From an uncultured Actinomycetes bacterium (GTDB lineage: Bacteria > Actinomycetota > Actinomycetes > Streptosporangiales > Streptosporangiaceae): DNA of 64,000 nt. The position numbers were made by a program, and so were the translations under genes. This document shows positions 4,905 to 31,896 of the stretch, one piece after another (position 1 is the first letter of the stretch; every line of letters begins with the position of its first letter). The notes under the pieces are model-generated. The model was given only the letters and a program-made list of their open reading frames with translations. It was not told the origin of the DNA and did not search any database. The stretch is taken from positions 249,242 to 313,241 of the forward strand of contig CAWINT010000011.1 of assembly GCA_963837515.1 (NCBI GenBank), read 5' to 3'.

Positions 4905-4914
4905 CTCCCCCGCC

Positions 4915-12862: not shown

Positions 12863-14131
12863 ATGAGCGATGAGGCACTGAATCTGCGCAGATCCACGCG
12901 GATCCTGCGGCGGCATATCGCCATCGTCGGCGTCGCCGCCGCGCTCGGACTGCTGGCGGGGGTCGCATTCGCCCTGCTGAAGCCGCCAATGCGGACGAGC
13001 AGCGCGCTCGTCCTGTTGCCTCCCGCCGTGGCGGGAGGCGGCGCTCAGCCAACTCGTTACCTCGCTACCCAGCTGGTCGTCGCGGTGAGCAGTCCGGTGC
13101 TGGCTGGGGCGGCCGACCAGCTGCATCCCGCGGTTCCGGTGCAGACGATGCGCCACCGGGTCACCGTCAGCAGCCCGAGCGCGGACCTCATCGCCTTCAC
13201 GGCCCAGGACCCGACCACCGCCCAGGCGGAAGACCTCGCGAATGCCATGGCTAACAGCTACATCGCTCATATCAGGACGCCGGGCAATCCCGACGTCCTG
13301 TTGCTGCAGCGGGCGGTGAGCGCCGTGGGCACGTCCCCGGCCACCCGGCTGGTGGTTGATGCCGGGCTGGGGGCCGTGCTGGGCGCGCTGGCTGGGTCAG
13401 TCCTCCTGCTCGCGACGCGCCGTGACGACCGCCGCCTGCAGCAGCGTGATGAGATCGCGGACGCCACAGGAGTTCCGGTGCTGGCGTCGATCCCCGTCCC
13501 GCACCCAGCCAACCCCGCAGGCTGGGCGAAGCTGCTCGATGACTATCAACCCGATGCCGTGCAGGCGTGGAGCCTGCGGAAGATCCTGCACCGGCTGGGG
13601 CTCGCCGACGGCCGGGAAGGAGATGGCGCGCGGCTGGCCATGGTTTCGCTGGCTTCCGACCACCGTGCGCTCGCGCTCGGCCCGCAGCTGGCCAGCTTTG
13701 CCGCCTCCCAGGGGATCCCCACGACGTTGGTCGTCAGCCAGGATCAGGATGCGCAGGCCATGGCCGCCCTGCGGGCCGCTTGCGCGTCGCGGGCGGCCCC
13801 GCACCCGGGCCGGCCGGGAGAGTTGCGCGTCCTCGTGGGGGCGGCCGAGCGGGCCGGCCAGCAGCTGGGCACGCCGCTGACCGTGATCGTCGATGTGGTC
13901 AGCGCCCAGGCCCCACGGCCCGCTGACCCGGCCCGGGCCACCGCGACGGTGCTGGGCGTCTCGGCTGGCGCGGCCACCGCCGAAGACCTGGCCCGGGTGG
14001 CGGTCAGCGCCGCAGGCGGCGGCCGGATCGCCGGCATCCTCCTGGCGGATGCTGACCCGGCCGACGAAACGACCGGCTGCCTTCCGCAGCCGGCGCGACC
14101 GAGGCCATTGACTCGCCCGAGCGCGCGATGA
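12863..14131 (+). CDS. Wzz/PCP-like protein A1: short extracytoplasmic loop, cytoplasmic BY-kinase-like domain lacking Walker A
   Basis: 422 aa with GGAGG before the ATG. TM1 (IAIVGVAAALGLLAGVAFALL), a Wzz-like loop, TM2, then RDEIADATGVPVLASIP and an ATPase-like fold in which SLASDHRAL replaces the GxxGxGK[ST] P-loop. Confidence 0.6.
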   Translation: MSDEALNLRRSTRILRRHIAIVGVAAALGLLAGVAFALLKPPMRTSSALVLLPPAVAGGGAQPTRYLATQLVVAVSSPVLAGAADQLHPAVPVQTMRHRVTVSSPSADLIAFTAQDPTTAQAEDLANAMANSYIAHIRTPGNPDVLLLQRAVSAVGTSPATRLVVDAGLGAVLGALAGSVLLLATRRDDRRLQQRDEIADATGVPVLASIPVPHPANPAGWAKLLDDYQPDAVQAWSLRKILHRLGLADGREGDGARLAMVSLASDHRALALGPQLASFAASQGIPTTLVVSQDQDAQAMAALRAACASRAAPHPGRPGELRVLVGAAERAGQQLGTPLTVIVDVVSAQAPRPADPARATATVLGVSAGAATAEDLARVAVSAAGGGRIAGILLADADPADETTGCLPQPARPRPLTRPSAR

Positions 14132-14141
14132 GGAAGAGCGG

Positions 14142-15785
14142 ATGGTGACGGTGCGGCGCGGGCCCAATGCGGACAGAGGCGAGCCGCAGTGGGCGAACGA
14201 TGGAGTCGTGGCGGGGGCTGAGCGTCCAGCCGGGCTGGCTCCAGCGGGCCTCCCGACCCTGCACTTCTTCCGGACGGCACTACGGCGAGGGGCCTGGCAG
14301 TGGGGGCTCATCGCCATGGCCGGGTTCCTGATCGGGCTCACCTTGAGCGTGCTGCTCCCGTCGGCCGACCAGGCGGCGACCTCGGTCTTGCTCACCCACA
14401 ACCCCAGCGAGGGGGCGGCCGACGCGATCCAGACCGACATGGCCATGGCCCGGAGCCGGCCGGTGGCTGAGCGCGCCATGAACCAGTTGGGACTGCGGCA
14501 GAGCGTCGGCAGCTTCATGGCGGCCTACTCGGTGACGCCCATCACCGACCGTATGATCCTCATCACGGTGGGCGCACCAACTATGTCCGAGGCGATGACC
14601 CGGGCCGATGCGGTGGCCAGGTCGTTCCTCCAGTTCCGCGCGCAGCAACTGCGGGCCCAGGTGCCGAGTGTCCTTAACGTCCTGGATCAGCGGATCAACG
14701 TGGCCTGGCGGCAGGCCGACGCGCTGGCCGTGCAGATCGCCAGGCAGTCCGGGCACGCCAAGTCGCGGGCCCAGAAGGCCGAGCTGAAGCGGCTGAAAGC
14801 CAGGGGCCGCCACGCGGGCAACGTGCTGAACGGGTGGCAACTCGCCGCCTCCGCGTACCAGTCGGGCACCGCCGCTGAGATCGCCGACAGCCGGATACTG
14901 GACTCCGCCGCGGCGGTCACGCACACGCAAGGATCCATGAGCCCGGGCATCCGCGACGCGGCCCTGTACGCCGTCACGGGACTCATCCCGGGCCTTGCGC
15001 TAGGCATGGGTTTCGTCATCGTCCGGGCGCTGGTTTCCAGGCGGCTGAGTCGCCGGGACGATGTCGCGGCCGCGCTCGGGGTTTCCATCGGGCTCAGCGT
15101 CGGTGCCGTACGCCGGGGCGGCCCGCTGCGCGGAGGGGCGGCCGCTGGGGGCCGCGATCCGCAGCGCATTGTGGTCCACCTGCGCAAGTCGGTCCCGCGA
15201 AGCTCGGCGAAGCCGGCCGCCCTGGCGGTCGTGGCCGTGGACGACTTGCGGGTACCCGCGCTGTCACTCACCTCACTGGCTGTCTCCTACGCAGAGCAGG
15301 GCAGCCGCGTTGTCCTGGCTGACCTGTGCCGCGGCGCGCCCGCGGCCCGGCGGTTGGGAGCCAGTGACCCCGGCGTGCACCAGGTGGACGGGGCGGGCGG
15401 GCACCTGATGGTAGCGATTCCCGGCCCCGGGAGCGTCGCTCCGGTCGGCCCGCTGCGCCGCGGGTCAGCGCTGGCCTGGGCACAGCCGTCCCCGGAACTG
15501 GCGATGGCCTGCCGCTCGGCGGATCTGCTGCTCACCCTGGTACAGCTCGATCCCGCACTGGGCGCGGACCACCTCGCCACGTGGGCCGGTGACGCCGTTG
15601 TCATGGTCACCGCCGGGCGGTCATCGGCCGTGAAGATACATGCGGTGGGCGAAATGGTGCGGCTCGCGGACGTCCGGTTCAGCCCCGCCGTACTCGTCGC
15701 GGCGGACAAGGCCGATGAGAGCCTTGGTGTCGCGCGCGAGACTGCCCTCAGCCCACCGGTCGCTTATGGCGTGGCCCCGGGATGA
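14142..15785 (+). CDS. Wzz/GumC-like PCP protein A2: long coiled-coil loop, cytoplasmic BY-kinase-like domain lacking Walker A
   Basis: 547 aa. Two TMs bracket a ~230-aa loop with coiled-coil character (FLQFRAQQLRAQ...KAELKRLKARG). The cytoplasmic domain ALAVVAVDDLRVPALSLTSLAVSYAEQGSRVVLADLCRG has no GK[ST]. Confidence 0.6.
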   Translation: MVTVRRGPNADRGEPQWANDGVVAGAERPAGLAPAGLPTLHFFRTALRRGAWQWGLIAMAGFLIGLTLSVLLPSADQAATSVLLTHNPSEGAADAIQTDMAMARSRPVAERAMNQLGLRQSVGSFMAAYSVTPITDRMILITVGAPTMSEAMTRADAVARSFLQFRAQQLRAQVPSVLNVLDQRINVAWRQADALAVQIARQSGHAKSRAQKAELKRLKARGRHAGNVLNGWQLAASAYQSGTAAEIADSRILDSAAAVTHTQGSMSPGIRDAALYAVTGLIPGLALGMGFVIVRALVSRRLSRRDDVAAALGVSIGLSVGAVRRGGPLRGGAAAGGRDPQRIVVHLRKSVPRSSAKPAALAVVAVDDLRVPALSLTSLAVSYAEQGSRVVLADLCRGAPAARRLGASDPGVHQVDGAGGHLMVAIPGPGSVAPVGPLRRGSALAWAQPSPELAMACRSADLLLTLVQLDPALGADHLATWAGDAVVMVTAGRSSAVKIHAVGEMVRLADVRFSPAVLVAADKADESLGVARETALSPPVAYGVAPG

Positions 15786-17803: not shown

Positions 17804-17886
17804 CTGTCCCCTTTCCCGGGCGGGACGCGCTTTTCCCCGTGGCGGGACCCGCACCGGACGGTGAGCGGAGCTGACGCGTCCGCCGC

Positions 17887-18775: not shown

Positions 18776-20004
18776 GATGGTGTTTGCCAGGCCCGCGGCG
18801 CAGCGAGGTGCCGGGCGGGGTTGGCGATGGCGAAACGGTAGATCTCCAGTAGGTGGTCGAGGCTGCGCTGAGGGTCGAATCGCTGCTCATACGCCTTGCG
18901 AGCTTGATTCCCGTAGTCCTGGTACTGCTCCGGGCGCGCCTCGACGTCGGCGAGGGCTGCGGCGAGAGCCGCGGGGTCGCCGGGCCGGAACAGCACGCCG
19001 TCGATGCCGTCGCTGATCAGTTCGCCCAGCGAGCCGTGCCCGGCGGCAACGGCGGGTGTGCCCACCGCCATGGCCTCGACCACGACCAGGCCAAACGTTT
19101 CCTGCCACATGGAAGGAACGACGATCGCCCGCGCCGCCGCCATCAGTTCGGCACACCGGCTGGCTGGGACCTCCCCGGCCAGTTCGACGTCCGGGCGGGC
19201 CGCAGCCCAGGTGGCCACCTCATCCAGCAACGGGCCGGCGCCCGCGATGACCAGTCGCAAGCTGGAGCCAGCGGCGCTGCGGCGGTACTCATCCCAGGCG
19301 GCCATCAGCAAACGCACACCCTTGGCCTCGGCCAGACGGCCGGCGTAGAGGACGGTCGGCTCCCGCGCCACCGCTGGTGCGGCCCGCCGCGGTATCAGGT
19401 TGTGCCGGACGAAGACCCGATCCGGCGGGAGCCCGAGCCCGCCCAGCAGGTCGCGTTGTGCCGCGGAAATGAATATGTACGCGGAGACCAGCGATTTCCA
19501 GACCGGCCGGTGCACACTGACGGCCAGCGCGGCGGGGGCGCTGACCACACGCGAATCCTGGTAGCAGCCGTGCCGGACCGCCGGCAGGGGAAGGCCGTGG
19601 GCGCAGTCGTGGCAGATAGCGCCGTCCCGGAAGAAGGTACCGCTGGCGCACACCAGCCGGTAGTTATGCAAGGTAACCACGACGGGGACCGCTGCGGCCC
19701 GGCAGGCCCGGAGGATGACGGCCGGGCTCAGCAGCGGGAAGGTGTTGTGCACGTGGACGACATCAGGCTGGTTGGCCCGGAGGGAGGCGGACAGCTCCCG
19801 GTAGGTTGCGCCGCTCCAGAAGACCCGGGTGGGCAACGCGGCCTTCTTGGCCCGCGACCACCCGTCGATGTCGTCATTGTGCTTCTCGAAGCGGACCACC
19901 TCGTGTCCCGCTGCGGTGAGCGCCTCAGCCTCGGTGTCGACGACCCGGTTCTCGCCGCTCGGCATGTTCGAGCGGTACCGGTTGTGCACCAGCGCGATCC
20001 TCAT
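18772..20004 (-). CDS. Family-4 (GT-B) glycosyltransferase
   Basis: 410 aa. MRIALVHNRY... N-terminus and the E-x7-E region ETFGLVVVEAMAVGTP. ATGA overlaps at both ends. Confidence 0.8.
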   Translation of the reverse strand: MRIALVHNRYRSNMPSGENRVVDTEAEALTAAGHEVVRFEKHNDDIDGWSRAKKAALPTRVFWSGATYRELSASLRANQPDVVHVHNTFPLLSPAVILRACRAAAVPVVVTLHNYRLVCASGTFFRDGAICHDCAHGLPLPAVRHGCYQDSRVVSAPAALAVSVHRPVWKSLVSAYIFISAAQRDLLGGLGLPPDRVFVRHNLIPRRAAPAVAREPTVLYAGRLAEAKGVRLLMAAWDEYRRSAAGSSLRLVIAGAGPLLDEVATWAAARPDVELAGEVPASRCAELMAAARAIVVPSMWQETFGLVVVEAMAVGTPAVAAGHGSLGELISDGIDGVLFRPGDPAALAAALADVEARPEQYQDYGNQARKAYEQRFDPQRSLDHLLEIYRFAIANPARHLAAPRAWQTPS

Positions 20005-21248
20005 CCGGACCGCCAGTCGTCGATGGGCGGTACCAGCAGCGACGCGGCCAGGGCCAGGTCGAGCATGTACTCCGAGGCGTCGCCGAGCCCGGTCTCGGTG
20101 TACGAGGTGACCATGAGGTAGACGACGAGGAACAGGGCGAGAGCCCGCTGGACGTCGATGGGCTGGAAATACGCGCTCACGAACACGTACAGCAGCAGCG
20201 CCGCGGAGATCGCCACCCCGAGAAGCCCAAGATCCAGGTAGGTGGCCAGCCAGTTGCTATCGATCGGGAAGCCGTTGAAGGCCTTGTTCGACACCCCGTA
20301 GCCGAAGATCACCTGGAAGAGATCACGGGGGGCATTGACCACGCCCTCCCAGACCGCTGTCCGGCCCGTCAGGCTGTTCAGCTGCTGCGTACTCTCCCCC
20401 CGGGTCAGCCAGGCCGTGATCACGCCGGAGAAGGCGGTGATCCCCACCGACACCGCCAGGCCGACCGTCAGGAATGTCCGGCGCACCCGGGCTCTGGTCA
20501 GGAAGATGCTCAGCCCGCCGACGAGGACGCCGGCCAGCAGGGCGACCAGCTCAACCCGGGTGTGGGTCAGCAGCACCACGAGTATCGTGACCGCGATCGA
20601 CGGCGCGGCAACGCGGCCGCGCATGAGGCCGCAGAACCAGAGGATGATGAGGAGCCCGGCCAGAACGGCCGCCAGGTCCGCCACCCCGGCTGGCGCTATC
20701 GGCCAGAACTCGCCGGAAAGCCGGCCCTCGGCCATGGCCCGCCCCGGGGCTATCACCAAGCCCAGCAACACGGAGCCGACGACCACCGCGAGGGCCTTCA
20801 TCTGGCACCGGACCAGGAGCATGTCGCGCCGTCCCCACCAGGGAGTCAGCAGCCAGAGGGTGGCGACGAAGCCAGCGAGCCGGAAGGTGCGGTACAACGT
20901 GCCGATGACGTGTCCCTGCGGATGCAGCCCCGACATCAACGCCTCGATGACCAGCAGGCTCAGCAGGCACAGGAACACGTTGGGGCGGATGCGCAGCGGC
21001 CGGTTGATCACCATCGCCACCAGCAGGGCCGCGGGCAGGGATCCCTGGGTGATCAGCTTGCCGACCACAGACGGGATGTGAATGATCAACGGCAGGCCGT
21101 TCCAGGTGCCGGCCGCGAACGTCAGCACGTTCAGAAACAGCAGACCCCAGACCACGCCGACGCCGCGCCGCTCCCACCGTTCGCGGGCGGCTACGGGATC
21201 GGCCGCCGGGAGACCAGGGCGGAAGCTCGTGACGACGGACAGGCTCAT
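20001..21248 (-). CDS. O-antigen ligase/polymerase-like (Wzy_C family) integral membrane protein
   Basis: 415 aa, ~10-12 predicted TM helices, with a conserved LLTHTRVELVAL segment typical of Wzy_C proteins. ATGA overlap with the upstream PCP gene. Confidence 0.65.
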   Translation of the reverse strand: MSLSVVTSFRPGLPAADPVAARERWERRGVGVVWGLLFLNVLTFAAGTWNGLPLIIHIPSVVGKLITQGSLPAALLVAMVINRPLRIRPNVFLCLLSLLVIEALMSGLHPQGHVIGTLYRTFRLAGFVATLWLLTPWWGRRDMLLVRCQMKALAVVVGSVLLGLVIAPGRAMAEGRLSGEFWPIAPAGVADLAAVLAGLLIILWFCGLMRGRVAAPSIAVTILVVLLTHTRVELVALLAGVLVGGLSIFLTRARVRRTFLTVGLAVSVGITAFSGVITAWLTRGESTQQLNSLTGRTAVWEGVVNAPRDLFQVIFGYGVSNKAFNGFPIDSNWLATYLDLGLLGVAISAALLLYVFVSAYFQPIDVQRALALFLVVYLMVTSYTETGLGDASEYMLDLALAASLLVPPIDDWRSG

Positions 21249-23038
21249 CGCTGGGTGATCCGCCAGGCTTCATCCACCTGCGCCGGCGGCTCCGGTGCGG
21301 GCCGTGGGTCCGCTGGCTCCGGTGCGGGCCGTGGGTCCGCTGGCCCCGGTGCGGGGCGTGGGTCCGCTGGGCCCGGTGCGGGCCGTGGGTCGGCCATGCC
21401 GGATGGCGGCCCGGGCTGGGCCGGCGCGGTGGCTGGCCGGGCGGCACCGAGGCTCTCGTCGGTCGTGTCGGCGTCGAGCAGCACCGCCGAGACCGGCCTG
21501 GTGCCGGCGAGCCGGGTCATCTCCCCCACCGCATGGATCTTCGTCCACGACGACCGCCCGGCGGTCACCATGATCACGGCCGTCCGGGCCCAGGTCACCA
21601 GGTGCTCGCCGCCCAGGGACGGATCCAGCTGGACCAGGGTGAGCAGGATGTCCGCCGAGGCAGCGGCCCGGGCCAGTTCCGGGTCGGGCCGCTGGCCGGA
21701 TGGGACGGCCGGCCGCAGCGGCCCGGGGGCGGCCTCGTCACCCGGGACCGCGACCACCAGGTGCGCCCCGTCCACGGTGACCGTGCCGATTCCCGGCTGC
21801 CGGACGCCCAGCAGCCGCGCCGCCGAGGTGCCGTGGCTCAGGTCCGCCAGCATCACCTGCCGGCCCTGCTGGGCGTACGACAGCGCGAGCGATACCACTG
21901 ACAGGGCCGGTTCCTGCGTGTCGTTGACGGCCACGACGGCCAGGGCCGCGGGACGGGTTCCCCCGCGCGGCAATGCCTCCCGCAGGTGGGCCACGATGCG
22001 CTGCACCGGCGGGCGCTGCGCGGCAGCCAGCCCGCGCCCCCCCGGCCGCCAGCGCGGTCCCCGTACCCGGGTCACGCTCAGCCGTACCGGAACGCCCAGG
22101 GCGTGCGCCACATCGTCGCGCCGCCGCAACCGGTTCGACACCAGCGCCCGGACCACCACGATGACCAGGCCCAGCACCAGTCCGGCCAGCAGCCCGCCAG
22201 CGGCGTACTCGGCGACATGCTTGACCCGGCCGGGCGAGCCGGCCATGGCGGCGTCGAGTATCTGGCTGCCCTGGACCAACTGGGCCGTAGTCTGCCGCGT
22301 GGTCACCTGGCTGGTGGTCACCGCCTGCTGCAGCGCCGGCAGCTGGGTCTGTGCCTCGACGCGCTGGGCGCGCAGCGCGGTGAGCCTGGCCTGCTGTACC
22401 GGTGTGGCCGATTGCGCGGCCAGCTGGTTGATCTGCCTGGTCAGCGTATTGAGCTGCTGCTTGGCCTGAGTGACCTGCAGCTGCAGCGCGGTGAGCGCAT
22501 GCTGCTCCTCGGCCCGGAACTGCTCCGCGCGGTACTGCAGGAACGCAGCCGCCACGGCGTGCGCCGCTTTCACCGCCTCGCCGCTGGAGGATGCTTTCAG
22601 GCTGATCTGCAGCACCCGGTCGGTGACCGCGGTGACCTTGTAGGAGGCCAGGAAACTGCTGGGGCTCTCCGGCAGCCCGAGCTTCCGTACGGCCTGGGCG
22701 GCGACGGTGTGGCTCTGGGCCAGTGCGATGTCGGTCAGGATCGCGTCGGTGGGCAGCTCAACTGGATTGGGGACCAGGACCACGGACGTCGTGGCCTGGT
22801 AGGAGGCGTGCCGGGTGTAATAGCCGGCGCCGATGATCAGCCCGAGCACGGCCGTGGTGACCCACAACCAGGCGCCCCGCCGCGCGGCTGCGGTGATGAA
22901 TGGCCAGCCGGGCTGCCCGGTGGAGTACTCCTCGCCCGGTGGTTCAGCGGCGGGAAGGCCGTCGCCGCGAGGCGGGCTCTGCGCCGCGGCGTCGCGGGGC
23001 GCCACGGAAGCCGTTACCGTCCGTTCGCCGTCACTCAC
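21245..23038 (-). CDS. Wzz/GumC-like PCP protein B2 (paralog of A2) with a C-terminal nonapeptide repeat tail
   Basis: 597 aa. Collinear with A2 (RRGAWLWV.. / FLQYRAEQFRAE.. / ALAVVAVNDTQEPALSVVSLALSYAQQGRQVMLADLSHG). No GK[ST] P-loop. GTGA overlap with B1. Confidence 0.6.
   Translation of the reverse strand: MSDGERTVTASVAPRDAAAQSPPRGDGLPAAEPPGEEYSTGQPGWPFITAAARRGAWLWVTTAVLGLIIGAGYYTRHASYQATTSVVLVPNPVELPTDAILTDIALAQSHTVAAQAVRKLGLPESPSSFLASYKVTAVTDRVLQISLKASSSGEAVKAAHAVAAAFLQYRAEQFRAEEQHALTALQLQVTQAKQQLNTLTRQINQLAAQSATPVQQARLTALRAQRVEAQTQLPALQQAVTTSQVTTRQTTAQLVQGSQILDAAMAGSPGRVKHVAEYAAGGLLAGLVLGLVIVVVRALVSNRLRRRDDVAHALGVPVRLSVTRVRGPRWRPGGRGLAAAQRPPVQRIVAHLREALPRGGTRPAALAVVAVNDTQEPALSVVSLALSYAQQGRQVMLADLSHGTSAARLLGVRQPGIGTVTVDGAHLVVAVPGDEAAPGPLRPAVPSGQRPDPELARAAASADILLTLVQLDPSLGGEHLVTWARTAVIMVTAGRSSWTKIHAVGEMTRLAGTRPVSAVLLDADTTDESLGAARPATAPAQPGPPSGMADPRPAPGPADPRPAPGPADPRPAPEPADPRPAPEPPAQVDEAWRITQR
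21288..21395. repeat. 27-bp tandem repeat, 4 copies, in-frame inside the B2 3' end
   Basis: Copies at 21288-21314 and 21315-21341 are identical (ggctccggtgcgggccgtgggtccgct). Copy 3 has 2 mismatches and copy 4 is more diverged. It encodes (ADPRPAPGP/EP)x4 on the minus strand. Confidence 0.9.
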
Positions 23039-24324
23039 GATGAAGTCTCCGATGTGCTGCCGGCCAAGCGGGTCGGCCGTCGCTGGCGCCGGGACGGCAC
23101 CGGGTCGGGCATTCGGCCGGTGGTGTGGTCCGCCGGGTCGGGGTTGGCGACCAGGATCCCGGCGATCTGGCGGCCGTCACTGGCCGCGCTGACCGCGACC
23201 CGGGCCAGTTGCTCCGCGGTGGCCGCTCCGGCCGACACGCCCAGGACGGTAACGGCTGTGCGCATCGTCTCGGCCACCTGCGGGTCCTGTGCGTCCACCA
23301 CCGAGGTGACCACCGCCAGCGGTGCCTCCAGCGGCTGACGCGCACTGCGCCGGTCTCGCACCTCGATCCACAGCCGGCCCAGCCGCCGGGACGGCTCGGA
23401 TGCCGCCGCCGCGCACGCGGTGCGCAACGTCGCGGTCGCGTTTTCATCCTGCTCGGGACCCAGGACGAAGGCTGTGGAGATGCCCAGGGAGGCGGCATAA
23501 GCAGCCAGTTGCGGGCCGAGCGCGAGTGCCTTCGGGTCGGAAGACAGGGACAGGACAGCCAATGAGGTGCCATGCCCGTCCCGGGTGTCGGCGAGGCCCA
23601 GGTGGTAGAGGGCCTTGCGCAGGCCCCATGCCTGGACCGGCCCGGGTTCGTACCCCTCGAGAAGCCGGGCCCAGCCCGCGGCGTCGCCGGGGTGCGAGGT
23701 GGGCAGCGCGGCCAGGACCGGAGTCCCGATCGCGTCGGCTATCTCGTCGCGCCGGCGCAGCCGCCGGTCACCGCGCCCGATCACCAGCGCGATGATGGCT
23801 CCGGCCAGCAGCCCAACCACCGCCCCCAGCAGGCCCGTGGTCAGGAAGCGGACCGCCGCCGGAGACTGGCTGGCGGTCGTGGCGGGCTGCAGCATCCGGG
23901 CCGGCACCCGCACGATCGGGTCGGCGGCAGAACTGACGTAGCTGAGATAGCTGCGGGCGACGGTGTTCGCAGCGTCCTCGGCCTGCGCGGCGGTCTTGCC
24001 CTGGGCGCTGATGAAGATGATCTGCGGACTCACCTTGCCCGCCTGCACCCGGTCCTGCAGCGTCTGCAGCGGTACCGGTGGATGCACCTGGCGCGCGGCG
24101 GCCGACAGAACCGGGTAACTGTGTGCGACGACTACCTGGGTGCCGATCGTCCGGCTCGCCGCCGCTGGCAGCACCACCTGCGCCGTACTGGTGAACAGCG
24201 GCGGGCGGAGCACGGCGTACGCCACGCCGGCCAGGAGGCCCAGCCCGGCGGCGATGCCGAGCAGCAGCTTGTACCGCCACACGATCCGCATGGCCCGGCG
24301 CAGGTCCAGGGCCTGCTCGTTCAT
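23035..24324 (-). CDS. Wzz/PCP-like protein B1 (paralog of A1)
   Basis: ORF track 23035..24879. Start set to the ATG at 24324 (GGAGG upstream), giving MNEQALDLRRAMRIV..., which aligns with MSDEALNLRRSTRIL of A1. The longer form would overlap the upstream gene. Confidence 0.6.
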   Translation of the reverse strand: MNEQALDLRRAMRIVWRYKLLLGIAAGLGLLAGVAYAVLRPPLFTSTAQVVLPAAASRTIGTQVVVAHSYPVLSAAARQVHPPVPLQTLQDRVQAGKVSPQIIFISAQGKTAAQAEDAANTVARSYLSYVSSAADPIVRVPARMLQPATTASQSPAAVRFLTTGLLGAVVGLLAGAIIALVIGRGDRRLRRRDEIADAIGTPVLAALPTSHPGDAAGWARLLEGYEPGPVQAWGLRKALYHLGLADTRDGHGTSLAVLSLSSDPKALALGPQLAAYAASLGISTAFVLGPEQDENATATLRTACAAAASEPSRRLGRLWIEVRDRRSARQPLEAPLAVVTSVVDAQDPQVAETMRTAVTVLGVSAGAATAEQLARVAVSAASDGRQIAGILVANPDPADHTTGRMPDPVPSRRQRRPTRLAGSTSETSS

Positions 24325-24341: not shown

Positions 24342-26420
24342 TCACGGCAGTTCCCGCATTCCGGCCCGGGATGCCGCCCATGATACGACTGGCCTGGTCA
24401 AAACGGACTCCGTTGCCGGGTCGGCTTCGGTGAATTCGAGCCGCGTGGCCAGGGCCTCGCCGGGCGCCGCGCGCCCGCTGCCGAGCAGCGTGACCGCGGG
24501 GACGCGGCGCCCCAGGCCGCCGGAATACCAGCCGAGGATCGGGTCCGTCGAACCGCGGTGCAGGCTCCACCGCAGCCCAGCCGGCAGCACCAGCCGGGCC
24601 GCGCCCGGTACCCCCGCGGCTGGCCAGCGCAGGACCGCGCCGCCGGCATCGAGCTGGGCTTCCACCTCGGGACCGAGGTGGAAGCCCAGCCGCACATCGT
24701 GATTCCCGCCGACCTCGTCGATGATCTCGATACGGCGGGCGCCCCGGTCCAGCCGGACCGTGCGGCGGTGCCGGGCAGGCGGATCGAGCCGGGTGTAGCC
24801 GTCGTGTTCTCCCGTCCAGCTGGCGCTGCTGCCGGTGTCCCGGACCTCGGTTTCCCGGGCGGTGGCGTGCCGCAGCCACAGGAACGGGCCGCCCTCGGTG
24901 GACTGGTTCCGGCCGCCGAGTTCTACGGTGTTGTGCGCGATGGTGGACCGGAAGTAGGAGCGCCAGGCAGGCTCGCCGTGATAACAGTAGGTGCCCGGGT
25001 CGGCGAGGATGTCAACGCCGCCGTACCGGACCTCCACGGCGAGGGCATCGGCATGGGCGTGCGCCGCGATACTGAGGTATCCGTGCGGCCCGCCGTCGCA
25101 CCGGCACCAGATCTCCGGGCCCTCGCCCGGGGCCGTGCGCAGCAGGGTGATCCCCGCATCGGGGAAGCGCCACGGCCGCTCCGCCGGGCGGCCCGCCACC
25201 GCCCGGGGGCCGCCGGCCAGCGCCCCGACGAATGCGCTGCCCGCATCGGCCCCGGCGTCCGGCCACCAGCCCAGCCGGCCGAACACGGCCTCACCCGCCG
25301 CCAGCAGCGATCGCCAGCCGCCCCGGTCCGGGGCATCCAGCAGCAGCGCACGGCCCTCATCGCCGTCCCCCTGGCGGGGCGGTCGCAGCGCCTGGTCGAG
25401 CAGCGCCGCGGCGCTGTCCACCATGGCACACAGCCGCGCCCAGGCGGCCGGGGCGAGCGGGAAGCCGCTGGCCCCGGCCTCGACCGCCGCGACCACACCA
25501 AGTTCGGCGACGAAGCACTGGTAATCCGAAGCGAGCTCCCGGCCGATGCCGGACGGGAACGTGTTGCGGATCAGCTCGCGTTCGAGCAGCCGGGCCGCGG
25601 ACCGGCGCCACCGTCCGGTCTCCGGGAACCAGGGGAAGGCGCAGCTCGCCACGAGCTGCCCGGCCGCCTCGGCGATGACGTGATTGTTGGCGGACGAGCC
25701 GCGGCTGCGGAACGCCGCCAGGTACTGCTGATGCCAGCGGATCTGCCGGACCGCGAGATCGTTGCGCTCGAACAGGCTGGCCACGCCCGGCCAGTCCGCC
25801 AGCAGGCGGCGGATCCAGGCCATGCTGATCAGCCGGACCCCGGCTTCGATGCCGCTCGTCCAGTGCACCCCGGAGAGGAACGGGTTGGCCCGCCACCATG
25901 AGTCCAGCTGGGCCGCCACCCGCTCGGCGTAGCGCTCGTCGTGGCTGAGGAACCACGCGGTGGCCAGCAGCGTCAGGTGGTGCAGCCGGGAGATCTCCCA
26001 CACCTGCTTGACGTTGCCGGTCTGCTCTTCGGAACGATGGTTGATCCGGAAGGCGTATGTGTCCGCCGGTGACCGGCGGCCGGTGACCGGGTCGCGGAAC
26101 CAGTCCGGCTGGGCCAGGTCGGTCCGCGGGACGCCGAGCACTTCCCACTCGCCGGCCAGCAGCTGATCCGCGGCGGCCAGGATGGCCGCGCGGGCCCCGG
26201 CCGGCACGTTCCCGGCCGCCCCCGGCGGCAGGGTGGCGGTGAACCGCCGGTCGCCGGGGGGCAGCGGGGGCAGCCCGGCGAGCTGGCCGGGGCGCACCTG
26301 CCGCCGTGACCAGGCCGCGTACCTGGCCTGGTCACGGGCCCGCCACGCCACCTCGGCCGGTGACATCCGGGCTGCCCGCCGGGCATACCAGCCGAGTCGT
26401 GATCCGCTACCGCTGCTCAT
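24342..26420 (-). CDS. Heparinase II/III-like protein, no signal peptide (alginate-lyase-like N-domain + Hepar_II_III C-domain)
   Basis: 692 aa. The region DGGPHGYLSIAAHAHADALAVEVRYGGVDILADPGTYCYHG...TIAHNTVELGG matches the heparinase II/III family signature. The N-terminus MSSGSGSRLGWYARRAARMSPAEV has no hydrophobic h-region. Confidence 0.65.
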   Translation of the reverse strand: MSSGSGSRLGWYARRAARMSPAEVAWRARDQARYAAWSRRQVRPGQLAGLPPLPPGDRRFTATLPPGAAGNVPAGARAAILAAADQLLAGEWEVLGVPRTDLAQPDWFRDPVTGRRSPADTYAFRINHRSEEQTGNVKQVWEISRLHHLTLLATAWFLSHDERYAERVAAQLDSWWRANPFLSGVHWTSGIEAGVRLISMAWIRRLLADWPGVASLFERNDLAVRQIRWHQQYLAAFRSRGSSANNHVIAEAAGQLVASCAFPWFPETGRWRRSAARLLERELIRNTFPSGIGRELASDYQCFVAELGVVAAVEAGASGFPLAPAAWARLCAMVDSAAALLDQALRPPRQGDGDEGRALLLDAPDRGGWRSLLAAGEAVFGRLGWWPDAGADAGSAFVGALAGGPRAVAGRPAERPWRFPDAGITLLRTAPGEGPEIWCRCDGGPHGYLSIAAHAHADALAVEVRYGGVDILADPGTYCYHGEPAWRSYFRSTIAHNTVELGGRNQSTEGGPFLWLRHATARETEVRDTGSSASWTGEHDGYTRLDPPARHRRTVRLDRGARRIEIIDEVGGNHDVRLGFHLGPEVEAQLDAGGAVLRWPAAGVPGAARLVLPAGLRWSLHRGSTDPILGWYSGGLGRRVPAVTLLGSGRAAPGEALATRLEFTEADPATESVLTRPVVSWAASRAGMRELP

Positions 26421-28582
26421 ACCTGCTCCGGGCGGCCACTGGCCCGGCTTTCCGCGACGGCGATCGTCGCCTTGGTCGTGGCGATCAGCGAGTCGAGCGG
26501 GATCGGCAGCGCGGTGCCGGCCCGGCAGGACTCGATGAACCGCTGGAGTTCCGTCCGCTGCCCCTTGTCCTGGCCGCCACGCGCCTTGCTGCTGCTCCGC
26601 TTCCGGCCGGCCCAGACACTCGCCTCGGTGAAGTTGTCCAGCCGGGCGCTGCAGCCGCCTGCCCCGGCGTCCAGCGTCTCCTTGGGGAACCGCCCGTTAC
26701 CGGTCGTCAGGTAGCTGATGGTCCCGGTGGCGCCGTTGCCGAACCGGACGATGGCCTGGACGTCTTCGGGGTCGGCGCCGGAGACCGCGTACACCTCCTC
26801 GGGGAGGCTGTCCGCCCACCAGCTGAGCGTGTCGATGAAATGGCCGCCCTCGCCGGTGAACCGCGATCCTTCCAGCTCCTCGTTCAGGTACCAGCTGCCG
26901 GTGTCCAGCCGACCCGCGTTCACCAGGTACCGCGTGCTCGCGGTGGCGGCCGCGGGGCCGAACCGGGTCCGCAGCTCGGTCAGCAGCGGCGCGAACCGGC
27001 GGTTGAACCCGACCATGAGCCGGTCGTTGCCGGTCTTCTCCACCACGTCGAGGATGCGTTCCGTTTCCTCCCTGGTCAGCGCCAGGGGCTTTTCCACGAA
27101 GACCGCCTTGCCGGTTTCCAGTGCCCGGCAGACCAGTTCGGCGTGGGTGTGATGGCGGGTCACGACGAAGATCACGTCAAGCGACGAGTCCTCCAGCACG
27201 GCGTCCGCGCGGGTGGAGGCGACGGCGAAGCCGAACCGCTGCTGCGCGTTCACCGCGGACAGCGACCGGTTGGTGGCGACGTGGGCGAGCCGGACAGCGG
27301 AGTCCTTGGCCAGGTGGGGCAGCAGCATCGAGGTGGCGTAGCTGCCCGCGCCGATGAACCCGACCGCCAGCTGGCCCGCTTTGGCCTGCGCCGCGGACGG
27401 GGTGCGGGCCAGCAGCCGGGTGGTGGCGGGCGGCCCGGTGCGCGTCTCCGGCTTCGGGTACTCCAGCAGCACCCCGACCGCCTGCAGCGCACCCGAACCC
27501 AGGTCCTCGTACGCCGAGGCCGCCTTCTCGATCGGGAAAGTGCCGCTGATCAGGGATTCGACCTCGATGTCCTTGCGGGCCAGCAGGTCGAGGAAGCATT
27601 CCAGGTTGCGCCGCTCGGTCCAGCGGACGTAGCCGGCCGGGTAGTCGACGCCCTCCAGCTCGTAGCGGTCGTCATAGCGGCCCGGGCCGTAGGACCGGGA
27701 GAACCGGACGTCGAGTTCTTTGTCGTAGTAGGCGTTCCAGGGCAGGTCCAGCCGGGTCTTGCCGATGTCCACCACCCGGGCCCGGTCCCGGGCCAGCTTG
27801 GCGGCGATCTCGGCCGGGCCGTTGGAGTGCCCGCCCGCGGTGATCAGCACGTGGTCGGCGCCGCGGCCGCCGGTCAGCCCGGCCAGCGCCTGCTCCACGG
27901 CGGCCAGTCCCGCACCGCTGGGGGCGCCGCAGCGTACCGCGCCCGCCTGCTCAGCGAGCTGGCAACGGTCGGCGTTCAGGTCCAGGCCGACCACCCGGAC
28001 CCCGGCCGCGAGCAGCAGCCGGACGGCCAGCTGGCCGACCAGGCCCAGGCCGATGACGCAGGCCGTCTCGCCCAGCTGGACCTCGGCCTGCCGCACCCCC
28101 TGCATGGCGATGGCCCCGACCGTGGCGAAGGCGGCATGCTCGGGCGCCACGTCCGGCGGCACGGGGACACACATATTGACCGGGATCCAGTTGTACTCCG
28201 CGTGCAGCGCGTACTCATTGCCGGCCGCGGCGACCAGCTGGCCCACCTGGAACTCGGCGGCCCCGCGGCCAACCTCGGTGACCACGCCGCACAGCGAGTA
28301 CCCCAGCGGGGTATAGGAGTCCAGCTTGGTCATGGCCTTCTTGTACGTGGTCACCAGGCCCTGCTGGGACACCGAGTCCATCACCTTGCGGACCTGGTCG
28401 GGACGCGCCCGGGCCATGCCGACCAGCGACATCTTGGCCTCGGTCACCTTCATCATCTCGGTGCCGGTCGAGATGAGCGAGAAAAATGACTGGACGAGGA
28501 CGCCGCCCGGCCGGCCCGTCGGAGCCGGCACGTCCAGGACGGCGAGTTCCCCGGACTTGTAATTCTGTGCTATCTGCTTCAT
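26417..28582 (-). CDS. Bi-domain oxidoreductase: N-terminal Zn-type alcohol dehydrogenase (MDR) + C-terminal Gfo/Idh/MocA
   Basis: 721 aa. Two Rossmann motifs (VIGLGLVGQLAV and GFIGAGSYA) and a GroES-like N-terminus (LVQSFFSLISTGTE). Confidence 0.7.
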   Translation of the reverse strand: MKQIAQNYKSGELAVLDVPAPTGRPGGVLVQSFFSLISTGTEMMKVTEAKMSLVGMARARPDQVRKVMDSVSQQGLVTTYKKAMTKLDSYTPLGYSLCGVVTEVGRGAAEFQVGQLVAAAGNEYALHAEYNWIPVNMCVPVPPDVAPEHAAFATVGAIAMQGVRQAEVQLGETACVIGLGLVGQLAVRLLLAAGVRVVGLDLNADRCQLAEQAGAVRCGAPSGAGLAAVEQALAGLTGGRGADHVLITAGGHSNGPAEIAAKLARDRARVVDIGKTRLDLPWNAYYDKELDVRFSRSYGPGRYDDRYELEGVDYPAGYVRWTERRNLECFLDLLARKDIEVESLISGTFPIEKAASAYEDLGSGALQAVGVLLEYPKPETRTGPPATTRLLARTPSAAQAKAGQLAVGFIGAGSYATSMLLPHLAKDSAVRLAHVATNRSLSAVNAQQRFGFAVASTRADAVLEDSSLDVIFVVTRHHTHAELVCRALETGKAVFVEKPLALTREETERILDVVEKTGNDRLMVGFNRRFAPLLTELRTRFGPAAATASTRYLVNAGRLDTGSWYLNEELEGSRFTGEGGHFIDTLSWWADSLPEEVYAVSGADPEDVQAIVRFGNGATGTISYLTTGNGRFPKETLDAGAGGCSARLDNFTEASVWAGRKRSSSKARGGQDKGQRTELQRFIESCRAGTALPIPLDSLIATTKATIAVAESRASGRPEQV

Positions 28583-28616
28583 CCCGTCCCCTGGTCACGG
28601 GTCCTCAGGTCATCCG

Positions 28617-30524
28617 TCATGCCGCCACGCCCATGGACTGGGCGTGGCGGTACCACAGCTCCAGCGAGAGCAGCTGCCAGATCTGTTTGGACCGGTCCTC
28701 GCGGCCGGCCTGGTCGTCAGCGATGAGCCGCCGCAGTGCGTCCCGGCGGAGCATCCCGGATTCGACCAGCTCGCCGCCGACGAGCACGTCCTGGATGACC
28801 TCGCGCAGGTCCTCGCGCACCCAGGCGCGCAGCGGCGCGCTGAACGAGGCCTTGGGCCGGTAGACGATCTCCTTCGGCAGCCACGCTTCGGCGGCCCGCT
28901 TGAGCGCCACCTTGCCCTGCCGCCCGCGGATCTTGTCGCCGCCGGGAATCGAAAACGCCGCGCGAGCCACCACCGGGTCCACGAACGGGACGCGCACCTC
29001 CACCGAGGCCGCCATGCTGGCCCGGTCCGTATAGGCAAGGTTCAGGCCAGGCAGGAAGAGCCGGGAATCGGCCAGGCACATCCGGTTGACCTCGTCGCCC
29101 AGGTCGTTGTCCTGGTAGATCTCGGCGTGCTCAGCCAGCACCGCGTTGACGTGCCGGGCCAGGTCCGGGCTGAGCAGGGCGGTGAGCTCGTCCGGGTCGT
29201 AAAGCGTATAGCTGCGCCGGAAGCGCGGCTCCTCGGGCAGGTCGGCGAAGGTCAGAAAGCGCTTGGCCCACCGGGCGTAGCGCAGGCCGCGGCCGGCCGC
29301 GACCACCGGCAGCCGGCCGGTCGTGGCCGACACGGCCGCCCGGGCCGGGCCCGGCACCCGGCTGTACTTGCTGGCCAGGACGCAGGCCAGGTGCTTGCGG
29401 TAGCCGCCGAACAGCTCATCGGCGCCCATCCCGGACAGCACGACCTTCACCCCGCGCTCCCGGGCTGCCTCGCACATCAGCAGCGTGTTGATGGCGGCCG
29501 GATCACCGATCGGCTCGTCCAGGACGTCCACGATCTGGGGCAGCATCCCGGCGATGTCCGGGGATATCTCGATCTCGTGCAGCGAGATGCCGTACTGTGC
29601 CGCGACCTTCCGGGCGTACACCGCGTCATCGGGCATCGCCTCCAGCCGCTGGTCCTGGGCACGGAAGGCGATCGTGTACGCGTCGATCTCCGGGTTGGCC
29701 CGGTGGGCCAGGACGGTGACGATGCTGGAGTCCAGGCCACCGGACAGGAAGCTGGACACGGGGACGTCCGAGACCAGGTGAGCGTTGACCGACTCCTCGA
29801 TCACCGCGCCCAGATCCTCGGCGGGCCCGGCGGCGGCCGCGGCGGCCACGTCCGCCACCCGCCAGTAGTGCTGCACGGAGGACCGGCCATCCGCGGTGAA
29901 CCGGCCCCATGACCCGGGGGGCAGCTTACGCACGCCGTCGATGGCGCAGCGCTGCTCGGGCAGCCAGTAGTACAGCATCGACGCCACCAGGGCGCCGGGC
30001 TCCATGCGCAGTTCCGCGCCCGCGGCGGCCACGAGTGCCTTCAGCTCGGAGGAGAAAACCACGCCGCTGCCGCGGGGCAGGTAGTACAGCGGCTTGATGC
30101 CCAGCGGGTCACGAGCCAGCACCAGGTCGCCGGTGCCCTCGTCGAACAGCGCGAAGGCGTACATGCCGCGGAACCGTTGCAGCGCGCCCGGGCCCCAGCG
30201 GCGCCAGGCCTCCAGCACCACCTCGGTGTCCGAGCTGGTGGTGAAGCGGACCCCGTGAGCGGTCAGTTCGGCGCGCAGATCCTGGTAGTTGTACAGCTCA
30301 CCGTTGTAGATGAGGGTCAGGCCGTCGCGGTGCAGCGGCTGGTCGGCCAGGGCGCTGAGGTCGATGATCGACAGTCGCCGGAAGCCGAACTGCACGGCCG
30401 GGCCGGGCCCCGTGTTGCTCCAGGTCCCGCTGGAGTCCGGCCCGCGGTGCGCGATCCGGTCGCTCATGATGTCCACGAGCTTGGCGCCGTCCGCCTGCTG
30501 GTAGCACCCGGCGATGCCGCACAT
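28617..30524 (-). CDS. asnB: Asparagine synthase (glutamine-hydrolysing)-family amidotransferase
   Basis: 635 aa. MCGIAG N-terminal nucleophile Cys and the SGGLDSS PP-loop motif. Confidence 0.85.
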   Translation of the reverse strand: MCGIAGCYQQADGAKLVDIMSDRIAHRGPDSSGTWSNTGPGPAVQFGFRRLSIIDLSALADQPLHRDGLTLIYNGELYNYQDLRAELTAHGVRFTTSSDTEVVLEAWRRWGPGALQRFRGMYAFALFDEGTGDLVLARDPLGIKPLYYLPRGSGVVFSSELKALVAAAGAELRMEPGALVASMLYYWLPEQRCAIDGVRKLPPGSWGRFTADGRSSVQHYWRVADVAAAAAAGPAEDLGAVIEESVNAHLVSDVPVSSFLSGGLDSSIVTVLAHRANPEIDAYTIAFRAQDQRLEAMPDDAVYARKVAAQYGISLHEIEISPDIAGMLPQIVDVLDEPIGDPAAINTLLMCEAARERGVKVVLSGMGADELFGGYRKHLACVLASKYSRVPGPARAAVSATTGRLPVVAAGRGLRYARWAKRFLTFADLPEEPRFRRSYTLYDPDELTALLSPDLARHVNAVLAEHAEIYQDNDLGDEVNRMCLADSRLFLPGLNLAYTDRASMAASVEVRVPFVDPVVARAAFSIPGGDKIRGRQGKVALKRAAEAWLPKEIVYRPKASFSAPLRAWVREDLREVIQDVLVGGELVESGMLRRDALRRLIADDQAGREDRSKQIWQLLSLELWYRHAQSMGVAA

Positions 30525-30525
30525 G

Positions 30526-31758
30526 TCAGCTCCCCGCCCGGCCGGTCAGCCGGCGGTACACGTCGAGATAGGCCCGCCGCTGGTGGCTCCAGGCCAGGTG
30601 CTGCTCGACCCGGGCCCGGCCCAGCTTGCCGAGGCGCGCCCGCCGCGGCTCGTCGTCCATGAGGGCGACCAGGGCGGTGGCGTACTCCTCGACGTCGTTG
30701 GGGGTGACGTACACCCCCGCCTCACCGGCCGAGATCCGCGTCTCCCGCAGGTCGAACGCGAGCACGGGCAGCTCGAACGCCATGTACTCCATGGTCTTGT
30801 TCATCGTGGACACGTCGTTGAGCGGGTTCTTCGGGTCGGGCGAGAGCCCGACGTGGGCGGTTGACATGACGCGCCGGACCAGATCGTCCGGGGCGCGGCC
30901 GGTGAACTCGACGTAATCGCCCAGGTCCAGCTCATCGCGCAGCGCGACCAGTTCGTCGAAGGAGTCGCCCTTGCCGATCAGCGTGAAGGCGATGTCGGCC
31001 CGGCCGAGCTTGTGCACCACGATGTCGGCGGCCCGCAGCACGATGTCGACCCCGTCCTGCGGCCCCATGACGCCGATGTAGGCGGCCAGGTACGGCCGCC
31101 CGCGGCGCAGCTCCGGGTGCTCCGCGCCGCGGCGCAGGAAGTCGGGGTCAGGCCCGGTCCGGACGACGGTGACGTCGGCGGGGGCCTTCCCGCTCCGCCG
31201 GATCGCGATCTCCCGGTAGGAGTCGTTGGTGGCGATCACCTGATCCGCGGCCCGGTGGGTCCGGCGCTCAAGTGCCCGCAGCCCCCGGTAGGGGAGTCTC
31301 GGGCCGTCCGGGAAACGGGACTCGAAGAGCTCCGGGCACAGGTCGTGGTGGTCGAACACGAACCGGGTGCGGTCGAAGGCCCGCAGCGCCTGCGCGATAG
31401 GCCAGAAGATGTCCGGCGGGTTGCAGGCCTGGAACACCGCGAACCGGCCGTGCCGGCGCGCCCGTAGGGTGCCCCACGCCGTAGCCGCGAACGAGTAGGC
31501 GTACTCCGCGATGAAGCTGGCCTTGCTGCCGCCTGGTGCGTACGGCCGGTACTTGTACAACTCCACCGTGTCCAGGACGGCGTACCCCGGATCCCCGGGC
31601 CCCTTCGGGCACACGACGGCGACCTGGTACCCGTCGGCCACGAGCGCCTGGCATTCGAGCCACACCCGCCGGTCGAAGGGCACCGGAAGGTTCTGGACGA
31701 TGATGAGGACACGAGCCGCCCGTCCGGCCGCTCGCGGGCGGTCGTGCTGCCGCCTCAC
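30526..31758 (-). CDS. Family-4 glycosyltransferase
   Basis: ORF track 30526..31896 has an Arg/Cys-rich N-terminal extension that looks atypical. The probable start is the GTG at 31758 (VRRQHD...RVLIIVQNLPVPFDRRV). E-x7-E-like EYMAFELPVLAF near the C-terminus. The start is uncertain. Confidence 0.65.
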   Translation of the reverse strand: MRRQHDRPRAAGRAARVLIIVQNLPVPFDRRVWLECQALVADGYQVAVVCPKGPGDPGYAVLDTVELYKYRPYAPGGSKASFIAEYAYSFAATAWGTLRARRHGRFAVFQACNPPDIFWPIAQALRAFDRTRFVFDHHDLCPELFESRFPDGPRLPYRGLRALERRTHRAADQVIATNDSYREIAIRRSGKAPADVTVVRTGPDPDFLRRGAEHPELRRGRPYLAAYIGVMGPQDGVDIVLRAADIVVHKLGRADIAFTLIGKGDSFDELVALRDELDLGDYVEFTGRAPDDLVRRVMSTAHVGLSPDPKNPLNDVSTMNKTMEYMAFELPVLAFDLRETRISAGEAGVYVTPNDVEEYATALVALMDDEPRRARLGKLGRARVEQHLAWSHQRRAYLDVYRRLTGRAGS

Positions 31759-31896
31759 GGCGCAACCGTGCTCAGCGCGGCCACCGCAACCTCCATCGCG
31801 CCACCCCCTAGAAATCCGGTCGCCAAAGTAATGGGCACATACGTGCTGACTCCCATAGGAGCGCCGCCGGGCGGCGGTGATACGGCGAAATTGCAC

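Follow-up and report, generated by a model that had tools for sequence, protein, structure and literature searches.

Catalytically competent bacterial tyrosine kinases (BY-kinases) have four hallmarks: a Walker A motif ending in GK[S/T], a Walker A′ motif of the form hhhhDxDxR, a Walker B motif of the form hhhhDxxP and a C-terminal cluster of tyrosines. Polysaccharide co-polymerases (PCP) of the PCP-2 type fused to a BY-pseudokinase domain have been described in Gram-negative bacteria, among them GumC of Xanthomonas and PssP2 of Rhizobium leguminosarum; further fused cases are S. meliloti SMc01795, M. japonicum Mlr8439 and V. vulnificus VV1_2305 (PMC12004946, PMC9800525, PMC4182512). GumC has been termed a 'pseudo-BY-kinase' (PMC9800525). 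PssP2 is devoid of Walker A, A′ and B motifs and of the Y cluster, forms heterocomplexes with PssP and binds the polymerase PssT (PMC4182512). These proteins set a precedent both for PCP-2 proteins that function independently of phosphorylation and for Wzy-binding heterocomplexes of PCPs (PMC12004946, PMC9800525, PMC4182512). Here we analyze four Wzz-like membrane proteins, A1, A2, B2 and B1, encoded in a 64,000-nucleotide stretch (the window) of contig CAWINT010000011.1, which comes from an uncultured actinobacterium of the Streptosporangiaceae (assembly GCA_963837515.1). We consider it probable, at roughly 0.7, that A1 and B1 (short-loop, S type) and A2 and B2 (long-loop, L type) are fused PCP-2a-type pseudokinase co-polymerases of a Wzy-dependent pathway, serving as non-catalytic scaffolds with S and L acting together.

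Loss of kinase motifs in four paired co-polymerases

All four open reading frames (ORFs) were found where a preliminary description of this DNA had placed them. A1 (12863..14131, plus strand, 422 aa) and A2 (14142..15785, plus strand, 547 aa) form one pair; B1 (23035..24324, minus strand, 429 aa) and B2 (21245..23038, minus strand, 597 aa) form the other. The true start of B1 is the Met codon at 24324, 18 nt past the stop of the upstream gene. A1 is 52% identical to B1, and A2 is 47-49% identical to B2; at 52% and 47% the duplicate copies of S and L in the window are old. The S and L types are homologous over their full length, cytoplasmic domain included (hhalign probability 98.7%).

The order of parts proposed earlier, a transmembrane (TM) helix, a Wzz-like outer loop, a second TM helix and a cytoplasmic domain, was recovered by a hydropathy scan, which gave two TM segments in A1, A2 and B1 and left TM1 of B2 slightly under the threshold. 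A1 has TM1 at residues ~14-39, an outer loop at ~40-158, TM2 at ~159-190 and a cytoplasmic domain at 193-422. In the AlphaFold models its outer loop of ~120 aa contains no hairpin; that of A2, ~195 aa long, contains two long helices (148-203 and 209-249) forming a coiled-coil hairpin (148-249), and the cytoplasmic domain of A2 occupies residues 303-547. The size given earlier for this domain, ~220 aa, was too low: 230-245 aa follow TM2 (about 295 in B2), so that the proteins differ from PCP-1, which has no sizeable cytoplasmic domain. Searches of the whole proteins with Pfam and NCBIfam recognized only the outer part, weakly (Wzz PF02706, GNVR, TIGR01006 CpsC family), and gave no match in the last 230-245 residues. 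Two TM helices thus flank a Wzz-like extracytoplasmic domain, for which Foldseek matches Wzc, WzzE and KpsE; a Wzy-like gene overlaps B2, and glycosyltransferases (GTs) and two Bac_transf phosphoglycosyltransferases are encoded at the locus, as would be expected of PCP-2a.

Every motif named in the preliminary description was located and mapped to nucleotides. Neither GK[ST] nor [AG]x4[AG]K[ST] occurs in any of the four cytoplasmic domains, and the only GKT is at residues 109-111 of B1 (23992-24000, minus strand), in the outer loop, where A1 has DPT. The register of the motifs was the same in three alignments: an ungapped manual one, BLASTP of B2 against Wzc (collinear over 258 residues, E 0.086) and hhalign. 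In this register A2 L361-D394 corresponds to Wzc L529-D562. The Walker A motif of Wzc, G533-VSPSI-G539-K540-T541, is aligned with A-VDDLR-V-P372-A373 of A2 (consensus AVDDxxVAA), which agrees with the earlier claim that the Walker A Lys is lost. The P-loop-equivalent of A2, LAVVAVDDLRVPA (15222..15260, plus strand), stands opposite LMMTGVSPSIGKT of Wzc, with both Gly lost, Lys replaced by Pro and Thr by Ala. In A1 the equivalent segment is LAMVSLASDHRAL (13634..13672, plus strand), in which the Wzc Walker A is aligned with S262-LASDH-R-A269-L270; A269 occupies the Lys position and is 99% conserved in the S family, and D266 is invariant (100%). The corresponding segments lie at 23524-23562 in B1 (LAVLSLSSDPKAL) and at 21905-21943 in B2, both on the minus strand. 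The end of Walker A therefore reads VPA, EPA, RAL or KAL in the four proteins instead of GK[S/T]: both Gly, the Lys and the Mg-binding hydroxyl are gone from the former P-loop, and acidic residues are present.

The other two Walker motifs are degraded to different degrees. The Walker A′-like strand of A2, VVLADLCRG (15309..15335, plus strand), keeps D394 (100% conserved), opposite Wzc D562, and has Cys/Ser in place of Wzc D564, so that L proteins retain only the first Asp (ADLC/S). S proteins have no Asp at either aligned position; D296 lies 4-5 residues further on. The Walker B-like strand of A2, LLLTLVQLDP (15525..15554, plus strand), contains D470 (95%) and P471 (99%), with a register against Wzc D642 uncertain by 2-4 residues. 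Overall, L has LDP (95% and 99%) and S has VVDxxxP (Asp 95%), each within 2-4 residues of the aligned Asp in this uncertain register. The EX2RX2R oligomerization motif is not conserved. With this fold and these motifs the domains correspond to a BY pseudokinase in the sense of PMC12004946.

No Tyr-rich tail was found either, as the preliminary description had stated: the last 30 residues contain 0-1 Tyr in all four proteins. Where the Tyr cluster would be, 3-8 residues past the last strand, both families have a short invariant motif, A-D-K/x-x-D(100%)-E-S-L-G(100%) in L and D-P-x-D(99%)-x-T-T-G-R in S, yet these motifs are in segments with a predicted local confidence (pLDDT) <50. In A2 the acidic tail ADKADESLG (15702..15728, plus strand; pLDDT <50) is at the start of the canonical Tyr cluster, and its D525 and G529 are 100% conserved. 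The B2 counterpart is ADTTDESLG (21446-21472, minus strand). A1 has DADPADETTG (14048..14077, plus strand; family consensus DPDPADHTTGR) in a low-confidence, flexible tail, and B1 has NPDPADHTTG (23116-23145, minus strand). Beyond its tail motif B2 carries a Pro-rich tandem repeat of four ADPRPAP(G/E)P copies (21287-21394, minus strand), which has no counterpart in A2 and most family members. In A1, Ser replaces the Walker B-like Asp (13877-13915, plus strand) kept in 95% of short-type proteins, including B1, and its tail motif has Ala where 98% of short-type proteins have Pro. Of the two pairs, A is the more derived.

We then considered the same motifs in relatives. Among 240 homologues retrieved with A2 and A1 as queries the few GK[ST] strings are all at non-homologous positions, and none has more than one Tyr in its last 30 residues. 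Column statistics (n = 240 and n = 189) show no conserved Lys in the domain core of either family. A further 146 cluster representatives, nearly all L-type and drawn from the best 150 of 1,527 matches to a profile of the cytoplasmic domain, contained neither a G-x4-GK[ST] string (the only form run on them; the broader GK[ST] was not) nor a Tyr-rich tail in the last 25 residues. The expression G.{4}GK[ST] misses canonical BY-kinases, since Wzc reads G-x5-GKT. Where it was the sole P-loop test, the absence of the motif consequently rests on the GK[ST] test of the four proteins and 240 homologues, on column conservation and on the BY-kinase search described below. As the motif losses hold family-wide, loss of the P-loop and Tyr tail is a property of the lineage and not due to chance.

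The enzymes of a phosphorylation cycle were looked for in the window and within 10 kb in 76 related loci, which came from a scan of one genome per species. A hidden Markov model (HMM) built from 16 canonical BY-kinases (Wzc of E. coli plus a diverse set of 15 proteins annotated as tyrosine autokinases in plasmid records) found no BY-kinase besides S and L ORFs in these 77 loci. They also contained no homologue of Wzb, a low-molecular-weight protein tyrosine phosphatase (LMW-PTP), and no CxGNxCRS signature. Pfam scans of the window ORFs detected neither an LMW-PTP nor a PHP-type phosphatase, the latter having been looked for in the window only. Having lost these motifs, the four domains cannot bind ATP canonically or autophosphorylate on a Tyr tail.

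Fold and conservation of the cytoplasmic domain

AlphaFold2 (AF2) models were built from 60-sequence alignments with no templates. Mean pLDDT was 77 for A2 and 73 for A1, with most of the cytoplasmic domain at 70-90. The best Foldseek match in the Protein Data Bank (PDB) was full-length Wzc (E 1.5e-16 for the A2 model and 5.8e-12 for the A1 model), followed by WzzE and KpsE, which match the outer part. Kinase-only CapAB chimeras (3BFV, 2VED, 4JLV, 4JMP) were matched at E 5e-5 to 2e-3 with target-normalized TM-scores of 0.51-0.59. Of these, CapA1B1 (4jlv) matched the A1 model at E 5.5e-5 and TM-score 0.57, and CapAB (2ved/3bfv) matched the A2 model at 0.57-0.59. The A1 model also matched kinase-only Etk (3CIO); CapAB and Etk together span TM-scores of 0.46-0.59. 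No other NTPase family was present among the best 50 Foldseek matches.

The profile alignment to canonical BY-kinases suggested in the preliminary description was carried out with hhalign, and both types of cytoplasmic domain aligned collinearly with the 16-member profile: the L type with 79% probability (E 1.6e-5, 149 columns) and the S type with 55% (E 1.2e-4, 201 columns). Against Wzc alone the signal was weak (11.7% for L), and S aligned in the outer-domain region only. The BY-kinase HMM, run on 5,324 ORFs from the window and the 76 loci, gave 147 matches, all of them S or L ORFs, with E 7e-7 to 2e-5 for the four window proteins. Most of this signal lies in TM2 and the juxtamembrane motif; the latter, xxGVPVLASIP, is matched by HGISVYASIP of Wzc. 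In A1 the motif is RDEIADATGVPVLASIP (13445..13495, plus strand; domain i-E 2.6e-6), opposite PQVLEEHGISVYASIP of Wzc in alpha1/beta1 of the kinase domain. Searches of the PDB with single proteins, full-length family profiles and a profile of the cytoplasmic domain found no kinase; the best results were a weak Wzc match in the periplasmic/TM2 part (E 0.25) and FleN, a MinD-class ATPase (E ~1), which aligned through the same strands as BY-kinases. Pfam detected no P-loop family in 37 isolated cytoplasmic domains, one of which matched CbiA at E 0.059. Because HMMER and Pfam fail on the core, the fold assignment rests on predicted structures and moderate hhalign probabilities. On these models a BY-kinase fold, as in PCP-2a, is well supported, and so is the proposal that the domains descend from this MinD-like P-loop fold and have lost the Gly-rich loop, the Walker A Lys/Thr and the Tyr cluster.

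Conservation is higher in this domain than in the part of the protein outside the membrane. Mean pairwise identity is 57.6% in the cytoplasmic core vs 45.9% in the outer loop for L, and 61.5% vs 52.1% for S; the juxtamembrane segment is the most conserved of all (~78%). Such a pattern indicates purifying selection, and the domain therefore appears to be functional and not a decaying relic. When the profile of the cytoplasmic domain, covering both types, was run against 1.84 billion representatives, it matched 1,527 clusters (50% identity) at E <= 1e-3, a set whose weak tail may grade into canonical kinases, and 1,133 clusters at E <= 1e-10.

Pairing of S with L and competing explanations

The 76 related loci are all from soil or peat metagenome-assembled genomes. 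Where a family or genus is given, most are Streptosporangiaceae or Trebonia (order Streptosporangiales), besides a single Nocardiopsis and two Nocardioidaceae; the others are Actinomycetes or Actinomycetota without further classification. S lies directly upstream of L in 65 of the 76, which contain 68 such pairs, and the pairing of a short-loop with a long coiled-coil-loop protein, pointed out in the preliminary description, is accordingly a conserved module. In the window B1 and B2 share GTGA, the GTG start of B2 overlapping the B1 stop; the A2 start lies 10 nt past the A1 stop, behind a GGAAGAG ribosome-binding site. The two-pair convergent layout of the window was also found in three other loci (L002, L003 and L020). 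In some genomes the copies have been homogenized: they are 94% identical for S and 69% for L in locus L003, and 98% and 85% in L006, which suggests recent duplication or gene conversion that was uneven across the pair members. Identities among S proteins correlate with those among L proteins (mirror-tree style, r = 0.77), but this was not counted as physical interaction because it is expected from shared phylogeny.

We propose the following mode of action. By analogy with the octamers of Wzc and CapAB and with GumC, PssP2 and EcpK, the cytoplasmic domain would be a non-catalytic oligomerization scaffold under the membrane. It would hold together a co-polymerase ring working with the adjacent Wzy polymerase, and would thus allow control of chain length and polymerization without a cycle of Tyr phosphorylation and dephosphorylation. 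Tight coupling and the shared tail motif suggest that translationally coupled S and L work together, possibly in one mixed ring. The role of the Tyr tail would fall to the tail motif (D-x-x-D-E-S-L-G in L, D-P-A-D-H-T-T-G-R in S), which may dock on the acidic former nucleotide pocket of a neighbor. Conservation of the domain and synteny of the genes lend indirect support to the idea that it is needed for making the polysaccharide and works by contact between proteins. The pseudokinase part of this proposal, already made in the preliminary description, is supported by the fold matches, the loss of the Walker A Lys/Thr, the absent Tyr tail and the negative searches for a nearby kinase or LMW-PTP.

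Several points weigh against this reading. Homology of the catalytic core is below HMMER detection, Pfam finds nothing, and PDB profile searches reach only FleN at E ~1. The motif register comes from sequence and profile alignment. In L the Walker A′ Asp is 100% conserved and an Asp-Pro near Walker B is 95% conserved, and some binding of a ligand or metal is therefore possible. Hetero-oligomerization of S with L is something we infer only, and some loci (L031, L037, L038) have an extra L with no adjacent S, next to the heparinase-like gene. No Wzx flippase was recognized in the window. Finally, 64 kb of the genome is in view, and a distant BY-kinase, PHP phosphatase or Hanks kinase could act on the proteins.

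A possible, though unlikely, alternative is that S and L form separate homo-oligomers that set two chain-length modes on one Wzy, as with Wzz1/Wzz2 or PssP/PssP2, their domains still being scaffolds. This would fit the great difference between the outer loops (~120 vs ~195 aa with a coiled coil), the L genes with no adjacent S and the opposite effects of PssP and PssP2 on polymer length (PMC4182512). It does not readily explain the near-universal adjacency with a 4-nt overlap in 43 of the 68 pairs, suggestive of co-translation in fixed proportion, nor the duplication of S-L pairs as units; moreover, PssP and PssP2 themselves make heterocomplexes.

A further reading is an obligate alternating hetero-octamer of S and L, in which the tail (DxxDESLG, or DPADHTTGR with its conserved Arg) plugs the neighbor's acidified ATP pocket. 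This would stand in for the phosphotyrosine switch, either hard-wired or gated by Ser/Thr phosphorylation, and the short and long outer domains would build a chamber whose shape is new for a Gram-positive envelope. We regard such an arrangement as doubtful.

It is improbable that the domains are switches binding a nucleotide or another ligand at a non-canonical site (Mg-nucleotide, dinucleotide or sugar nucleotide), or that Ser/Thr in the tails is phosphorylated by a kinase encoded elsewhere. The conserved acidic residues would be in keeping with the first variant (D394 at 100% and D470-P471 at 95% and 99% in L; D266 at 100% in S), but the core has no conserved Lys or Gly-rich loop, and the two acidic residues in the former P-loop should repel phosphates. 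The second variant could draw on the conserved S527 of L or T403-T404 of S and on the restriction of our view to 64 kb of the genome, but no kinase or phosphatase was found in any of the 76 neighborhoods.

That the domain is unrelated to BY-kinases, with a Rossmann-like model that is a generic alpha/beta prediction and Foldseek matches driven by the TM and Wzz parts, is very improbable: HMMER and Pfam detect no kinase domain and the BY-kinase HMM matches come mainly from TM2 and the juxtamembrane motif, but kinase-only crystal structures, which have neither TM nor Wzz parts, are matched at TM-scores of 0.56-0.59, hhalign of the cytoplasmic domain alone is collinear over 149-201 columns (E 1e-4 to 1e-5), BLASTP gives the same register, and the marginal PDB match, a MinD-class ATPase, uses these strands in its alignment as well.

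The locus and its relation to known systems

The window has a G+C content of ~70%. The polysaccharide locus spans ~1.8 kb to 39 kb and the nuo operon begins at 46.7 kb. Besides S and L genes the locus encodes a pyruvyl transferase, an epimerase, methyltransferases, GT2 and GT4 glycosyltransferases, RmlC and the Wzy-like multi-TM protein. The gene for the latter (20001..21248, minus strand), whose product has at least 7 TM segments and matches Wzy_C weakly, overlaps B2 at its 3′ end and is the conserved downstream partner of the S-L pair, found in 49 of the 76 loci. The conserved upstream part of the B operon (24342..31896, minus strand) consists of genes for a GT4 (30526-31896), an AsnB-like amidotransferase (28617-30524), an ADH/GFO fusion oxidoreductase (26417-28582) and a heparinase II/III-like protein (24342-26420). 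The B operon of the window (24342-31896 and 18772-21248, minus strand) recurs in loci L004-L041 in the order GT4, AsnB-like, ADH/GFO, heparinase II/III-like, S, L, Wzy-like, GT4, (methyltransferase), beta-helix protein. The heparinase II/III-like gene is always immediately upstream of S, and it might encode a lyase that acts at the polymer level or else an enzyme resembling C5-epimerases. A right-handed beta-helix protein of 703 aa with one N-terminal TM segment is encoded convergently with A2 (15845-17956, minus strand) in a stretch of lower G+C (0.65). The gene is conserved in 35 of the 76 loci, and the protein may be a polysaccharide-modifying or -degrading enzyme.

A 749-aa protein (32166-34415, plus strand) has at least 5 predicted TM segments and no Pfam/NCBIfam match, and occurs in 25 of the 76 related loci; since no Wzx flippase was recognized, it is a candidate for the absent membrane function. 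The two Bac_transf phosphoglycosyltransferase genes are in tandem (35782-37395 and 37538-39004, plus strand). As two such genes and two PCP pairs stand against one recognizable Wzy-like gene, the locus may produce two polymers or a single one in two variants. The polysaccharide genes are directly followed by CysD- and CysN-like sulfate adenylyltransferase genes (39868-42098, plus strand), a hint of a sulfated product; no sulfotransferase was identified. At the other edge three genes for DUF4082-containing proteins (1857-3050, 3142-4371 and 5520-7508, minus strand) lie beside genes for two small proteins with no family matches (4335-4904 and 4915-5454, minus strand). Synteny of this stretch (1857-7508) is kept in five related loci (L002, L003, L020, L024 and L028).

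The pseudokinase interpretation is right but not new in kind, because kinase-dead BY-kinase domains have already been published in the co-polymerases GumC, PssP2, HfsB, EcpK and SMc01795. The same applies to the control mode that the preliminary description set apart from the phosphorylation cycle of Wzc/CapAB: analogy supports it, but PCP-2 pseudokinases had been reported before (PMC12004946, PMC9800525, PMC4182512). What is new is the actinobacterial lineage, for which Pfam has no model, the coupled short/long pair and the conserved acidic tail motif. No relevant actinobacterial precedent came out of a literature search. Fused (P-type) proteins are the norm in Actinomycetota (1,588 of 1,901; Table 1 of PMC9800525).

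To the few Gram-negative cases of phosphorylation-independent PCP-2 co-polymerases is thereby added a large actinobacterial family of at least ~1,500 sequence clusters, whose cytoplasmic core is recognized by no domain model. A coupled pair with both partners kinase-dead is a natural system for roles of the BY-kinase fold beyond phosphorylation, which may include ring assembly, contact with Wzy and tail docking. Proteins of the S and L types are currently annotated as 'hypothetical' or 'Wzz N-terminal domain' only. Motif-based catalogues of BY-kinases will miss them, and a family model would therefore improve the annotation of polysaccharide loci in soil actinobacteria.

S and L resemble Wzc/Etk (PCP-2a) and CapAB/CpsCD (PCP-2b) in architecture, in the juxtamembrane alpha1/beta1 motif (xxGVxVLASIP) and in how the strands and helices of the kinase fold follow one another, but have no GK[S/T], DxD, Tyr cluster, conserved EX2RX2R or cognate phosphatase gene. 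Like Wzz1/Wzz2 of Pseudomonas aeruginosa (PCP-1), they are two co-polymerases with outer domains of different size for one polymerase; unlike S and L, PCP-1 proteins lack a cytoplasmic domain and are not encoded by coupled tandem genes. EcpK/EpsV of Myxococcus xanthus and HfsB/HfsA of Caulobacter also have a BY-kinase fold with no Walker A, A′ or B motif and no Tyr tail; there the pseudokinase is essential for a Wzy-dependent polysaccharide and a scaffold role has been proposed. Those systems are bipartite with a separate soluble pseudokinase, whereas the S/L domain is fused, and EcpK is truncated to a five-stranded sheet, whereas the AF2 models of the S/L domains have more strands. Members of the GumC/PssP2 group likewise combine, on a single polypeptide, a pair of TM helices with an outer domain like that of Wzz and a cytoplasmic BY-kinase-like domain with no Walker motifs and/or Tyr cluster; they belong to a Wzx/Wzy-type pathway and are proposed to work independently of phosphorylation. 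The S and L proteins differ from that group in their origin, a Gram-positive lineage of actinobacteria that lacks an outer-membrane OPX partner, in having a core with no detectable similarity to existing family models, and in forming a translationally coupled short/long pair, both members pseudokinases, with a conserved acidic tail motif.

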